From: an uncultured Lachnospiraceae bacterium
Lineage (GTDB): Bacteria; Bacillota; Clostridia; Lachnospirales; Lachnospiraceae
Assembly: GCA_944376945.1 (NCBI GenBank)
Contig: CALWEC010000080.1
Span: 1 to 61,438, forward strand
Direction of reading: 5' to 3'
DNA length: 61,438 nucleotides
In this document: positions 4,534-37,880 of the stretch, piece by piece
How positions within the stretch are numbered: the first letter of the stretch is position 1
Layout: each line of letters begins with the position of its first letter
Program-made: the position numbers and the translations under genes
The notes under the pieces: model-generated
What the model was told of the DNA's origin: nothing
Database searches by the model: none
What the model saw: the letters and a program-made list of their open reading frames with translations, nothing else

Positions 4534-4703
4534 AGGGTCGCCTCCATTGCATAGTCGTTTTAGTTTACCTTGTCAATGTAAAATATTATAGCCCTTTTTC
4601 CCTGGGGATTTGTTAATTTTGTGTAAAGTTTCCGTCTCCGTCCGGGGCCCAACATGCCATTGACAATCCGGCAAAATCTGCTAGAATGAATTTTAGAATT
4701 GAA

Positions 4704-4890
4704 TGTATCAAGGTGCCCGCGGTTTCCGCGGGAGAATAGGGAAGCTGAGTGAAAAACTCACACGGTCACGCCGCTGTAAAGGGAGAGCCGTGTTTTCAAG
4801 GGATTCGGCGGAATCCACGCCACTGGGAGATTTCCCGGGAAGGCCGAAAACACAGCAGAGACCCCTAAGTCAGAAGACCTGCCTGGTACA
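4704..4890 (+). ncRNA. Cobalamin (B12) riboswitch
   Basis: AATAGGGAA, GCCGCTGTAA, GCCACTGGGA..GGGAAGG, AGTCAGAAGACCTGCC (B12 box); TGTATCAAGG/CCTGGTACA closing stem; upstream of cbiM. Confidence 0.93.
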
Positions 4891-4981
4891 GGAAATTTAC
4901 ACCGGGTTACGAACGATGGCCTTGTGTAGGAACCGGATACCCCAAGGGGGATCTCCTTTTCGGTTTTCCGGTTTCCAGATG

Positions 4982-27743: not shown

Positions 27744-27875
27744 ACGCACATCCTCCTGTCCGAGGCGCCTTTCCCTGCCAAAACCATTTTCTTACCGGAA
27801 ACCATTTTCCCTATCACAGGAAAAGCCGGGCAGAATCTGCCCGGCCTGAATCACACATTTTGCGGTTCTCACCGC

Positions 27876-27965
27876 AGTCCATCCCTCCGTTGGCATTACC
27901 CAAATCAGGTCACAGGGTCGAAAATTTTTCCTCTCAGCCTGTCCGGCAGGCTCCCCTTGGCATAC
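27876..27965 (-). ncRNA. TPP riboswitch
   Basis: Minus strand AGGGGAGCC..GGCTGAGAG..ACCCTGTGACCTGATTTGGGTAATGCCAACGGAGGGA. Confidence 0.93.
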
Positions 27966-28080
27966 TGGTATTCGATTGTCTGTCCGCCGCCCATGCCCGG
28001 CGGGTTGTCTATAACCATAACACGGAATGAGCAAGAATGCAAGGTTTCTTTGGGAAATTGTTCTGCCGTTTTCCTCCGAT

Positions 28081-28872
28081 TCACCGCAGCAGCATCCGGT
28101 CGTTGGCCAGCTTCTTTTTGCTGGCCTCCGAATAGCAGGCCAGCAGCCCCTCCACGGTCATCTCCTCCCGCTCCTTGCCGGAAATATCCAGAATAATCTG
28201 GCCGTCGTCCATCATAATCGTGCGGCTGCCGATGGACAGGGCCGCCTGTATATCGTGGGTGATCATCATGGTCGTAATATGCCCCGCCGCCACCAGGTCC
28301 ACCGTAATCCGCAGCACCTTCTCCGCCGTAGCCGGGTCCAGGGCCGCCGTGTGTTCGTCCAGCAGCAGCAGCTTTGGCTCCGCGATGGTACACATCAGCA
28401 GGGAAACCGCCTGACGCTGCCCGCCGGACAGCTGCCCTACCTGGGCCTTCAGCCGGTCCTCCAGCCCCAAATCCAGCTGGCGCAGCAGGCTGCGGAAATA
28501 CTCCCGGTCCCGGCGGCTCACCGCGAACAGGCTTTTCTTGGCCTTGCGGGTGTATGCCAGCGCCAGGTTTTCCTCCAGCGTCATATGCGGGGCCGTCCCC
28601 TTCAGCGTATCCTGGAACACACGGCCTATATCAAAGGCCCTCCGGTAATCCTTCCAGGCCGTAATGTTTTTCCCGTCCAGATGGATGCTGCCAGAGTCCA
28701 GCCAGAATGAGCCGCCGATGGCGTTGAAAAGCGTGGACTTCCCCGCCCCGTTGGAGCCGATAACGGTCACAAATTCCCCTGGCTCCAGGTGCAGGCTGAC
28801 CCCGTTCAGCGCCCGCTTCTCATTGGGCGTCCCCGGATAAAACGTCTTTTTTACCTTCTCCAGCGTCAGCAT
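28081..28872 (-). CDS. ABC ATPase, TrpZ-like
   Basis: GSNGAGKST, GRVFQD, LSGGQRQA, LDEHTAALDP. Confidence 0.9.
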   Translation of the reverse strand: MLTLEKVKKTFYPGTPNEKRALNGVSLHLEPGEFVTVIGSNGAGKSTLFNAIGGSFWLDSGSIHLDGKNITAWKDYRRAFDIGRVFQDTLKGTAPHMTLEENLALAYTRKAKKSLFAVSRRDREYFRSLLRQLDLGLEDRLKAQVGQLSGGQRQAVSLLMCTIAEPKLLLLDEHTAALDPATAEKVLRITVDLVAAGHITTMMITHDIQAALSIGSRTIMMDDGQIILDISGKEREEMTVEGLLACYSEASKKKLANDRMLLR

Positions 28873-29772
28873 TTAATCCCGCTCCCTTCTCTTTATTTTC
28901 CGCAGGCCCAGCCACTGCTTCAGGGCCGGAAGCGAAAGGGCCAGCGCCACAATCAAAGCGGAGACCAGCTTCAGCCCGTAGGAAGGGAACAGCTCCACCT
29001 TCAGCGCCAGGGCGATAAACATCCGGTATACCACGGAGCCTAAAATGGCGGAAAACAGCCCAGCCGTCACCGAACGGCGGCCGGCTATGGTCTCCCCGAT
29101 GATCACGGAAGCCAGGCCGATCACCACCATACCGCTGCCGTAGCCGGCGTCAAAAAAGGATAGGGACTGGCCCACCAGGCCGCCGGATAAGGCTACACAG
29201 GCGTTTCCCAGCGCCAGGCCCAGGCACTTGTATACATCCGCGTTGACGGAGGAGGACCGCACCATGTCCTCGTTGTCTCCGGTGGCCCGGATGGCCAAGC
29301 CCTGCCGGGTCTTAAAGTAAACCGAAAGCACCGTCCCCAGCGCCGCGCAGGCAAACAGCGGCAGCAAGGTTTTACTCTGGTTGGCCGTCAGCCCCAAGGC
29401 CTCCTCCCACTGCTGGAACAGGGTTTCCGCCAGGGCGGCGGACACATTGGACTTGCCTCCTGTAAGAAATAGGTTGACGGAGTAAAGCCCGGTCATGGTC
29501 AGGATTCCCGCCAGGATGGGATGGATTCCCACCTTGGTCTGCAAAAGCCCCGTAACCAGCCCGGCGGCGGCTCCGGCCACAACCGCTAAAAGCAGCCCCA
29601 AAAGCGGATGGCCCGCCACCGTCACCGTGACCGAAACCGCCATCCCCAGGCAAAAGCTTCCGTCCGCCGTCAAATCCGGCGTATTCAAAATCCGAAAGGT
29701 AATATACACGCCCATGGCCAGCACGGCATAGGCAAATCCCTCCTGGAGGGAACGAAGCAGCAACACTCCCAT
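28873..29772 (-). CDS. ABC permease, TrpY-like
   Basis: GVYITFRIL..PDLTADGSF, RATGDN, GLASVIIGE. Confidence 0.9.
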   Translation of the reverse strand: MGVLLLRSLQEGFAYAVLAMGVYITFRILNTPDLTADGSFCLGMAVSVTVTVAGHPLLGLLLAVVAGAAAGLVTGLLQTKVGIHPILAGILTMTGLYSVNLFLTGGKSNVSAALAETLFQQWEEALGLTANQSKTLLPLFACAALGTVLSVYFKTRQGLAIRATGDNEDMVRSSSVNADVYKCLGLALGNACVALSGGLVGQSLSFFDAGYGSGMVVIGLASVIIGETIAGRRSVTAGLFSAILGSVVYRMFIALALKVELFPSYGLKLVSALIVALALSLPALKQWLGLRKIKRRERD

Positions 29773-29833
29773 AATCGTCTCCTATGGCAGCATGGCCGAA
29801 GGCATGCTGCGTTTTCGCATCCGGCAGCCGTCC

Positions 29834-30775
29834 TTACCGGGCTTCCGCCAGGGCGATATGCTCCTGGATCACCTGGCAGGAACGGTCAAAGGCCGCCTGT
29901 TCTTCTGGCGTCAGGTTCAGCTCCAAAATTTCTTCCACCCCGTTTTTGCCGATCACCGCCGGCACCCCGGCGTGAAAACCGCGGTGGCCGTACTGGCCGG
30001 TGAGATAGGCAGAAACCGGGAACACCCGGCGCTCGTCGTACAGCACCGCCTGGCACAGATCCGCCAGGGCCGCGCCGATGCCAAACTCGGTGGAACCCTT
30101 GCCGATGATAATCTCCATCCCGATCTGATGGGTCCTTTCTTCCAGGATTTCCCGCGTAGCCCTTCCGTATACCTCCGGGCATTCCGCGATCCGCTCCGTC
30201 AGCGGCTTTCCCATAATGGTAATCTGGGAGTACGGAACCATGGAAGAATCCCCGTGCTCCCCCATGGCAAAGCACTGGAGGGAGCGCATATCCACCCCGG
30301 TCAGTTCGTGGAGCGTCCGGCGCAGCCGGGCTGTGTCCAGGGAAGTCCCGGTGCCAAACACCCGGGCCGCCGGATACCCCAGATGCTTTCGGGCATAGTC
30401 GGCCACAATATCGCAGGGGTTGGAGATGGAAATGAAAATCCCCTGAAACCGGGTCTGGGACAGTTTCCCCACCACATCCTTCATAATATCAATGGTATCC
30501 CCCAGCATATCCAGCCGGGTCTGCCCCGGCTTCCGGGACACGCCCACCGCGTTGACCAAAATATCCGCGTCCTCGCAGTCGGCGTAGGTCCCTGCGTAGA
30601 CGGACACCGGCCGCCGCATAAAGGCGGTGGCGTCCGACACGTCCTTGGCCTGGCTGTCCGCCTTGGCCTCGTCGATGTCAATCAGCGCAATCTCCCCGCA
30701 GATCCCGGCCATGGCCAGGTTCAGGGCGCACAGGGAGCCCACATGGCCAGCCCCCAGAATCACGATTTTGCTCAT
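29834..30775 (-). CDS. L-lactate/malate dehydrogenase-family 2-hydroxyacid dehydrogenase
   Basis: GAGHVG, GVSRKPGQTRLD, SNPCD, GTGTSLDTAR, GEHGDS, KGSTEFGIG. Confidence 0.9.
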   Translation of the reverse strand: MSKIVILGAGHVGSLCALNLAMAGICGEIALIDIDEAKADSQAKDVSDATAFMRRPVSVYAGTYADCEDADILVNAVGVSRKPGQTRLDMLGDTIDIMKDVVGKLSQTRFQGIFISISNPCDIVADYARKHLGYPAARVFGTGTSLDTARLRRTLHELTGVDMRSLQCFAMGEHGDSSMVPYSQITIMGKPLTERIAECPEVYGRATREILEERTHQIGMEIIIGKGSTEFGIGAALADLCQAVLYDERRVFPVSAYLTGQYGHRGFHAGVPAVIGKNGVEEILELNLTPEEQAAFDRSCQVIQEHIALAEAR

Positions 30776-30816
30776 TTTCCCTCCTTGCGGCTCTGCCGCT
30801 TGTCCCCTGGAACCGG

Positions 30817-31902
30817 TTACTCTCCCAGGATGGTAAAGGTTTCCCGCATGGCGTCGGTTACCTCAATCCCCAGCTGGCCGGCGGTATTCGCATTGATCAT
30901 GCGGGCGTATTCCGCAATCTGCTCCACCGGGTTCTCCGCGATGCTCTCTCCGTTTACCAGACGATCCACCATCTGGGCCGTCTGCCGGCCCAGCACCGTA
31001 TAGTCGATGCCCACCGTGGCCAGGCCGCCGTCTATCACCATGGAATCCGCGCCTACGTAGATGGGAAGGCCCGCCTCGTTGGCTACCTGCAGGTACACCG
31101 CCATAGCCGAAGCCACCGTGTTGTCATTGGGCGTAAAGAACGCGTCCACCGAGCCTACCAGGGAAGCCGCCGCCTGCTGTACATCCGCGGTGCCGGTGAC
31201 CGTGGCTTCCTTATAGGAAAGGTTGTGGGCCTCGCAGTAGGCCTTGGCTGTTTCAATGCCGGTGACCGAGTTGATCTCGCTGGTATTGTACACCAGGCCG
31301 ATGGTCTGGATGTCCGGGGTCAGCTCCAGCGCCAGATCCAGGATATCCTCCACCGGGATCGAGTTGGAGACACCGGTAATGTTGCCGTCCGTCTGATCCA
31401 GGGCCGTTACCAGGCCTGCCTCCACCGGATTGCTGACGGCGGAAAACACGATGGGGATCTCATCGGTAGCGGAAGCCGTCACCTGCGCCGTGGGCGTGGC
31501 GATGGGCACCAGGATGTCCGCCCCCTCCGTGATCAGTTCCTGGACCACCGTGGGCAGGATGGTGGTGTCCCCGTTGGCATTCTGATAGAGGATTTCAATC
31601 TTTCCCTCGTCCACCAGCGGCTGCAGTTCCTCCACAATGGTCTCGTAAATCTGGTTCAGGGAAGGATGGTCCATATGCTGGAGGATTCCCACCTGGATCA
31701 CGTCTCCGTCCGCCTGCACCCGGACGCCTTCCCCGGTTCCGCTGCCTTGGGCCTCCGTGCTCACGGCCTGGCTGCCGCCCTGGGCTTCCGTTCCGCCGGA
31801 AGCGGCTCCCGTAGTTTCCTTCCCGCTGCCGCCGCAGCCGGCCAGCATTCCCAGCGCCATCATCAGTCCCAGTCCACACGCCAACATCTTTCTTGCCTTC
31901 AT
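30817..31902 (-). CDS. ABC substrate-binding lipoprotein, TrpX-like aromatic amino-acid type
   Basis: Lipobox LAGC; HPSL, IATPTAQ, PIVFSAV, NITGVS, SEINS, NDNTV. Confidence 0.88.
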   Translation of the reverse strand: MKARKMLACGLGLMMALGMLAGCGGSGKETTGAASGGTEAQGGSQAVSTEAQGSGTGEGVRVQADGDVIQVGILQHMDHPSLNQIYETIVEELQPLVDEGKIEILYQNANGDTTILPTVVQELITEGADILVPIATPTAQVTASATDEIPIVFSAVSNPVEAGLVTALDQTDGNITGVSNSIPVEDILDLALELTPDIQTIGLVYNTSEINSVTGIETAKAYCEAHNLSYKEATVTGTADVQQAAASLVGSVDAFFTPNDNTVASAMAVYLQVANEAGLPIYVGADSMVIDGGLATVGIDYTVLGRQTAQMVDRLVNGESIAENPVEQIAEYARMINANTAGQLGIEVTDAMRETFTILGE

Positions 31903-32008
31903 TTTCTGCTCCTCTCTGCCGCGCACCGGCGGCGTCACACTGCCCCAAGGGGCCAGGGGAACGGTGCGTCCAGTGACCGGTATTGGCCGGTAAGTGGGAC
32001 TTTCCCAC

Positions 32009-32265
32009 AAAAAAAGTCCTCATTCTGCGTATGCAGAATAAGGACAAGTTCATCACCTGCGGTACCACCTTACTTAATTCGTTGCGAATTCTCTCTTCCA
32101 GGAGTGCCAATACACCCCCTGCCCTTAACGCGGACAATACGTCTCGGATACTCGGCCCAGCCTTTCCCCTTGCCCTCAGCGGCCCATGTACTCCAGCGCT
32201 TTCTGCGGTTTCTCAGCCTCCCCGCTCTCTGTAAGTGCTCACTGCAGCACCTTCTCCGCCTCTAT
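32009..32265 (-). ncRNA. T-box leader with probable Trp (UGG) specifier
   Basis: Minus strand: AGAGAG and GCTGAG boxes in stem I, T-box AAGGTGGTACCGC (32059-32071), terminator GTCCTTATTCTGCA..TGCAGAATGAGGAC-T7; TGG at 32184-32186 precedes one purine and the closing helix. Confidence 0.9.
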
Positions 32266-32297
32266 GGTTTTGCGAAGTGTTTTGTTTTGATATGGGT

Positions 32298-32326
32298 ATT
32301 ATACGCAGATTGCCCTGGTTTGTCAA
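32298..32326 (-). promoter_or_regulatory. Consensus sigmaA promoter of the T-box operon
   Basis: Perfect TTGACA-N17-TATAAT on the minus strand. Confidence 0.85.
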
Positions 32327-37576: not shown

Positions 37577-37880
37577 GGTACCTCACTGCCAGGCACATAT
37601 CCAACCACATTTTTTTGTGACGCTTCCAAAAGCTTTTTGTAAAGATTCAAGCCATACAGAGGACGCCCCACTAGACAACCGCCTCTCCCCCCTGCTATAC
37701 TTTACTATGAAAGCCCGGTCGCAAAGCATAGGCGGAATGGGCTGCTGGCAGGCCAGGCCGCCTACGCTTTCGCGACGCTAACCTGTATGAGCAAGCAGGC
37801 CGTTAGGCCGGATTGCGAATACAGGTAGGATTGCGGGAGGGCGCAAGCACGGAGCAATCCATACCAGGAGGAACACAACC

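Follow-up and report, generated by a model that had tools for sequence, protein, structure and literature searches.

A tryptophan T-box operon with a TrpX-type importer and a non-canonical 2-hydroxyacid dehydrogenase: a candidate indole-3-lactate salvage system in Lachnospiraceae

We analyzed a stretch of 61,438 nucleotides (hereafter, the window) from an uncultured Lachnospiraceae bacterium (assembly GCA_944376945.1, contig CALWEC010000080.1, positions 1 to 61,438). Its minus strand carries a four-gene operon that starts with a tryptophan T-box and encodes a TrpX-family binding lipoprotein, a dehydrogenase of the lactate dehydrogenase (LDH) and malate dehydrogenase (MDH) superfamily, and the permease and ATPase of an ATP-binding cassette (ABC) importer. 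We propose, with a probability of roughly 0.55, that this operon imports (S)-indole-3-lactate and oxidizes it for tryptophan salvage, the substrates being predicted from sequence. Its features are the following:

32298..32326 (-): sigmaA-type promoter, TTGACA-17-TATAAT, 12/12 consensus matches
32037..32273 (-): transcriptional T-box leader (stem I, II, IIA/B, III, antiterminator); RF00230, 70.1 bits, E 3e-15, model positions 1-219
32184..32186 (-): UGG specifier codon (Trp); a shift of one base upstream gives the rival AUG, 32187-32185
32064..32067 (-): antiterminator bulge UGGU, pairing with the tRNA NCCA end (RF00230 alignment and folding)
32009..32045 (-): intrinsic terminator with a 13-bp stem (32045-32016) and a run of 7 U; it overlaps the antiterminator
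30817..31902 (-): TrpX-family substrate-binding lipoprotein, 361 aa, PF04392, lipobox LAGC; pocket T136, A155, S157, N180, N261, A285, D286, Y301
29834..30775 (-): non-canonical L-2-hydroxyacid dehydrogenase, 313 aa, PF00056 and PF02866; D68, R102, R109, D168, R171, H195, S199, T246, E247, I250 (LDH numbering)
28873..29772 (-): ABC permease (TrpY-like), 299 aa, PF02653
28081..28872 (-): ABC ATPase (TrpZ-like), 263 aa, PF00005

An earlier, sequence-only reading of the window had described a promoter, a T-box and four co-oriented genes with gaps of 61 bp or less, and this architecture held up. Promoter, T-box, terminator and all four open reading frames are on the minus strand; the gene gaps measure 41, 61 and 0 bp, and no terminator-like site is listed in them. 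We infer that the four genes are co-transcribed. Promoter-like sites number four in 6.5 kb against 2.0 expected, and the sole perfect one is that at 32326-32298. The leader matches RF00230 over its full length with a score under the Rfam gathering threshold (93 bits), a level that five of the seven T-boxes in the source genome (G000) do not reach. It has the traits of this family, namely stem I, the antiterminator bulge UGGN and an overlapping terminator, and folding of the antiterminator shows a UGGUACC bulge. U is common at the variable bulge position of Trp T-boxes, and UGGU fits via a G:U wobble (PMC7778990). None of 200 shuffles folded as well as the terminator (z -3.8). RNAfold recovered the stem I pairings previously folded by hand, with a stem I energy that alone is not above that of shuffles (z -1.1). 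Behind this Trp T-box, the PF04392 lipoprotein, the permease and the ATPase reproduce the trpXYZ layout. Metatranscriptome contigs from three runs (two studies) cover the leader without mismatches (32065-32240, 32004-32241 and 32060-32272), and among the 24 of 213 pieces listed none bridges the junction between the lipoprotein and dehydrogenase genes. This leader-only coverage hints weakly, at best, at attenuated leader RNA; on co-transcription it is uninformative.

The specifier had been read as UGG (Trp) rather than AUG (Met), and this assignment was confirmed. We applied the rule that the specifier codon ends one base before the helix closing the specifier loop. The rule yielded UGG at the operon and the cognate codon in all six other T-boxes of the source genome (Phe, Tyr, Val, Asn, Thr and Met; the calibration genes pheS, tyrS, valS, asnB, thrS and metG were named from their translations), the pattern also fitting a second, downstream place in two of these six. 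In two congeners, the trpE T-boxes share the register of the operon leader and have A-UGG-A, and the T-box of a related importer (L253) reads G-UGG-G, which breaks AUG. Because of these three results, we rejected the Met register. We also surveyed the best 80 of 372 relatives of the dehydrogenase in GTDB genomes. Of the 27 T-boxes detected in these 80 loci, 25 are located before an importer or a dehydrogenase gene, each of them with UGG, a count that alone cannot choose between UGG and AUG because A precedes UGG in every one. The hidden Markov model (HMM) used for detection was seeded partly on these loci, so that a failure to find a T-box at a given locus is weak evidence.

The binding lipoprotein resembles TrpX and differs from it at the ligand pocket. 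The trpXYZ systems of Streptococcus suis (PMC9382623) and S. pneumoniae (SP1069, PDB 3LFT) likewise combine a Trp T-box and terminator with a PF04392 lipoprotein, a permease and an ATPase, whereas the operon studied here holds a fourth gene, the dehydrogenase, inside the unit. Its lipoprotein scored 292.8 on the TrpX equivalog model NF041285, under the cut-off of 390. The six ligand residues given for S. suis TrpX (PMC9382623) map at a constant offset of 28 to T136, A155, S157, N180, N261 and Y301; the Thr, the Ala and an Asn are kept and Ser stands for Thr, while Q273 is replaced by Tyr301 and the only acidic ligand residue, D152, by Asn180. We suggest that Asp152 balances the alpha-amino group of the ligand and that its replacement by Asn would accommodate hydroxy or keto acids.

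Asn180 is found in 118 of the 120 nearest homologs of the lipoprotein. Of 120 binding proteins placed in a tree, 16 basal relatives have retained Asp, and Trp T-boxes precede 11 of these 16. The dehydrogenase was absent at E 1e-80 from all 15 of their genomes that we searched. Within the Asn clade are nested two isolated members with Asp, whose genomes hold no LDH-family gene. The dehydrogenase is adjacent in 34 of 38 Asn members (one inferred across contig ends), most of which were located via the dehydrogenase itself. At two loci (L125 and L291), Asp180-type and Asn180-type paralogs stand in tandem with one permease and one ATPase between them, which suggests two related ligands. Clostridioides difficile CD0873 (Tyr, PDB 6HNI) and Vibrio cholerae VC1101 (Phe, PDB 3LKV) belong to the same binding-protein family (E 4e-50 and 6e-49) and share the Tyr at the side-chain gate, but they bind amino acids, carry Asp at position 180 and lack Asp286. 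The source genome encodes a second TrpX-family binding protein (G000:C275:26-880, minus strand), 31% identical and of the Asp180/Glu285 type, upstream of which no T-box was found.

We next considered the dehydrogenase, which we classify as an uncharacterized, non-canonical 2-hydroxyacid dehydrogenase because of its residue set, its place in the tree and its similar identity to Bifidobacterium ALDH (41%) and to a canonical LDH (40.5%). Its score on the L-LDH model TIGR01771 exceeds the cut-off (333 against 303.55), and its catalytic set R109, D168, R171 and H195 is intact. It lacks the canonical LDH residues Q102, H68 and the acidic residue at 199, carrying R102, D68 and S199 in their place; the absence of Q102 agrees with the earlier suggestion that the enzyme is not fermentative. 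D68, R102, T246 and E247 are invariant across 51 aligned proteins. Its scores on two MDH models are under the cut-offs (249.9 against 283 and 200.8 against 351.85), and of the traits of type 3 malate dehydrogenases it has R102, whereas A/S246, P250 and M199 are replaced by T246, I250 and S199. In a midpoint-rooted maximum-likelihood tree of 46 proteins, a hand-picked subset of 174, it falls inside an R102 clade (100/98) nested in a wider clade (100/98) that includes the methionine-operon enzymes described below. A 100/99 split places this wider clade and Bifidobacterium ALDH on one side and the canonical LDH and MDH-like proteins on the other. Its AlphaFold model (mean confidence, pLDDT, 94.7) matched LDH-fold structures only in Foldseek, at 34-38% identity, which is silent on substrate, and sequence searches of the PDB returned no solved structure from its clade. 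The frame is interrupted by an internal stop at two survey loci (L060 and L319), a possible sign of decay or of assembly error.

Two known enzyme groups are informative comparisons. Bifidobacterium ALDH, a type 4 LDH that prefers indole-pyruvate and was shown to produce indole-lactate (PMC8556157), is of the same fold family, also lies outside canonical LDH and shares D68, T232, G236, T246, F248 and I250 with the operon enzyme. It differs in its active-site loop, is not its sister, and has transaminase and haloacid dehalogenase genes as neighbours; the ALDH sequence used here came from metagenome contigs located with the primer given in that paper, in place of a named record. The 'intermediate group' between LDH and MDH also mixes the signatures of both (PMC9486893), but D68/R102/T246/I250 is not among the combinations that the cited part of that work lists as common, and E247 is invariant in the clade of the operon enzyme.

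Linkage between importer and dehydrogenase recurs across genomes. In 47 of the 80 loci, a TrpX-family importer is found no more than 5 kb from the dehydrogenase. Conservation of the four-gene order, a check named in the sequence-only reading, was borne out as a linkage, and not as an exact order: 12 loci have the arrangement of the window, one has the enzyme last, 18 are convergent, 15 have the enzyme before the importer, and one is of another kind. At L133 and L327, the dehydrogenase is the first gene behind the Trp T-box. Among 398 evenly sampled Clostridia, the binding protein (65% identical) occurred in one genome and the dehydrogenase in two; they coincide, with the genes 1.7 kb apart. 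The exact four-gene order is rare, being found in only one of 330 sampled Lachnospiraceae genera, that of the window. The closest named relatives are Lachnospiraceae, and cultured ones that carry the operon include Cuneatibacter sp. NSJ-177, Hominifimenecus sp. rT4P-3 and Mediterraneibacter hominis NSJ-55. All five congeners searched have the dehydrogenase; the five best survey loci match their identities, are probably the same sequences and were not taken as independent support. In five of the loci, cysK and metY precede the dehydrogenase and a glycerol-dehydrogenase-like gene follows it directly.

A parallel module may follow the same logic. Sixteen Lachnospiraceae genomes were enzyme-positive, and six of them carry members of a related dehydrogenase clade (47% identical) inside metN-metI-[dehydrogenase]-metQ-like operons (L333-L337 and L046, in G776, G610, G511, G691, G703 and G007). 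An aminotransferase gene accompanies all six operons and a GlcD-like FAD oxidoreductase gene five of them; a LysR-type gene precedes at least three, and an Rfam search returned no riboswitch in the six loci. In the family search, which covered one locus, all scores except that of the dehydrogenase were under the curated cut-offs. This operon likely serves the salvage of the methionine hydroxy analogue. As read from its genes alone, it presents a complete import-oxidize-transaminate layout, and the same logic is therefore plausible for tryptophan. Both this module and the pocket change at the conserved acidic ligand residue were counted as supporting the earlier reading. We tentatively suggest, at somewhat less than even odds, that anaerobic Clostridia hold a family of starvation-induced modules converting hydroxy acids into amino acids, each pairing an amino-acid ABC importer, retuned to the deaminated analogue, with a matched non-canonical dehydrogenase; its tryptophan member would be a dedicated (S)-indole-3-lactate consumer and its methionine member the metNIQ-like operon.

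Our model for the tryptophan operon is as follows. Under tryptophan shortage, uncharged tRNA-Trp would stabilize the antiterminator, as is established for T-boxes, and allow transcription of the four genes. The importer would likely bring in (S)-indole-3-lactate, and possibly indole-3-pyruvate or other aryl-lactates. The dehydrogenase would then likely oxidize indole-lactate with NAD+ to indole-3-pyruvate, which a general aminotransferase encoded elsewhere would convert to tryptophan; distant aminotransferase matches lie on 11 contigs of the source genome, none beside the operon. Oxidation of indole-lactate with NAD+ is uphill, and the reaction would therefore need to be pulled by transamination and tryptophan use. 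The fold family of the dehydrogenase implies the L (S) enantiomer. The (R)-indole-lactate made by Clostridium sporogenes (PMC5897657) would therefore not be a substrate.

The absence of trpA-E had been suggested as a check on this model, and it proved uninformative. trpA and trpC were not found in the source assembly, which is 88% complete, but both are present in all three congeners tested. Enolase, which adjoins the trp operon in a congener, is missing from the assembly as well, so that an assembly gap is likely, and we dropped tryptophan auxotrophy as support. A stand-alone trpB-like gene (G000:C142:4975-6129, plus strand), 53% identical to the operon trpB of a congener, lies beside a divergent LysR-type gene and may serve indole salvage; no trpA was found in the assembly.

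A number of observations weigh against indole-3-lactate salvage. No importer is near the dehydrogenase in 33 of the 80 loci, some of them on short contigs. Two findings argue against tight coupling: of 40 enzyme-positive genomes that we checked, including 32 that belong to these 33 loci, only two carry the binding-protein subfamily elsewhere, and a Peptoclostridium plasmid carries the subfamily with no dehydrogenase adjacent. The 18 loci with a convergent layout leave the dehydrogenase outside the control of the T-box. No aminotransferase clusters with the Trp-type loci, and the congeners are tryptophan prototrophs by gene content. Among five Asn members located via the binding protein, three have the dehydrogenase adjacent (one of them across contig ends). 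Asn180 is not diagnostic, since S. pyogenes TrpX also has it, and the cited pocket descriptions do not state the role we assign to Asp152. Asn is also found in a second clade, present in 10 of the 330 genomes, seven of which lack the dehydrogenase; the association of this clade with the enzyme (3/10 against 13/320, Fisher p 0.009) was not used as support because kin genomes are not independent. Orthology to ALDH was ruled out by the 41% identity (the paper's homolog cut-off is above 60%), the different loop and the non-sister position. Finally, Y301 with A285 is said to exclude the Trp side chain, giving a 'Phe-type' pocket (PMC6816091). This objection is weakened because Asp-type relatives behind Trp T-boxes share A285-D286-Y301; D286 may take over the contact with the indole NH.

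We considered four other explanations. The operon could be a plain trpXYZ tryptophan importer, a type established behind Trp T-boxes (PMC9382623), with the dehydrogenase as a linked passenger that has a separate, broad 2-hydroxyacid role. The importer-less loci, the Asn180 of S. pyogenes TrpX and the occurrence of the binding-protein subfamily without an adjacent dehydrogenase at L290, L260, L261 and L291 would fit this explanation, but the linkage survives several rearrangements across families, including those with the dehydrogenase first behind the T-box, and the pocket residue is Asp in the two nested members whose genomes lack LDH-family genes; we consider it unlikely. Somewhat less probable again is a general salvage of aryl-lactates such as phenyl-lactate and 4-hydroxyphenyl-lactate, with tryptophan merely signalling a shortage of aromatic amino acids. 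The A285/Y301 pocket is described as the 'Phe default' (PMC6816091), and in 10 of the 80 loci (L101, L105, L107, L110, L115-L117, L123, L124 and L129) a 3-deoxy-D-arabino-heptulosonate 7-phosphate synthase gene directly precedes the dehydrogenase, usually with a TrpX-family importer carrying Glu285, a Tyr-type residue, next; no T-box was found there by the HMM, a weak negative. Against this, the 25 linked T-boxes all read UGG and none Phe or Tyr, and the Asp-type relatives with the same A-D-Y pocket are also behind Trp T-boxes.

The dehydrogenase might instead act on malate or another dicarboxylic 2-hydroxyacid for redox or transamination balance, re-using R102, which is a malate dehydrogenase signature and thus also counts against indole-lactate as the substrate; D68 is an MDH feature too (PMC9486893). 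The enzyme is the sole Ldh_1_N gene over the cut-off in the source genome and in a complete congener (G004), and in three loci it precedes a transporter that resembles, by eye, a dicarboxylate/amino-acid symporter (no NCBIfam match at 1e-25). We regard this role as improbable, given that T246 and I250 are reported as unfavourable for oxaloacetate (PMC9486893, PMC10583557), that the MDH scores are under the cut-offs and that the enzyme stands apart from the MDH-like proteins L034 and L037 in the tree. Nor do we know of a reason to place a housekeeping MDH under tryptophan control. The reductive direction, an electron sink in which tryptophan would be imported and, after transamination, reduced to indole-lactate, is favoured by thermodynamics. 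ALDH works in this way (PMC8556157), but a terminator-type T-box induces at tryptophan shortage, when destroying tryptophan would be harmful, and we hold this direction to be very improbable.

The window contains other RNA elements. A thiamine pyrophosphate riboswitch (27865-27967, minus strand) lies directly 3' of the operon, before an ABC ATPase and permease (27749-26201) that probably serve the uptake of a thiamine precursor; its position is kept in four congeners. Clostridiales-1 RNAs occur at 37708-37866 of the window and at L057:2553-2719; in one congener, a copy separates the T-box terminator from the lipoprotein gene. A cobalamin riboswitch is located at 4693-4900 (plus strand, 105.8 bits).

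Our literature search found no description of the four-gene unit; the T-box regulon tables published in RNA in 2008, RegPrecise and TBDB may list the gene pair. The word 'dehydrogenase' is absent from the main text of a T-box survey (PMC2494555), and the regulation of C. perfringens ldh (PMC2940859) is unrelated to the operon. What was already known is trpXYZ under a Trp T-box (PMC9382623) and ALDH as a producer (PMC8556157); what appears to be new is the dehydrogenase in the unit. Since named cultured relatives carry the operon, the proposal is directly testable.

Work on indole-3-lactate has centred on its role as an end product with effects on the host, and the organisms that make it are known. 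If our proposal is true, a dedicated importer and oxidase would identify a consumer of this compound, which bifidobacteria produce and which is active on the host, as well as a way in which cross-feeding leads back to tryptophan, concealed so far by the standard annotation 'L-lactate dehydrogenase'. It would also provide a substrate for an uncharacterized branch of the LDH/MDH superfamily, where R102 would not be a sign of malate.

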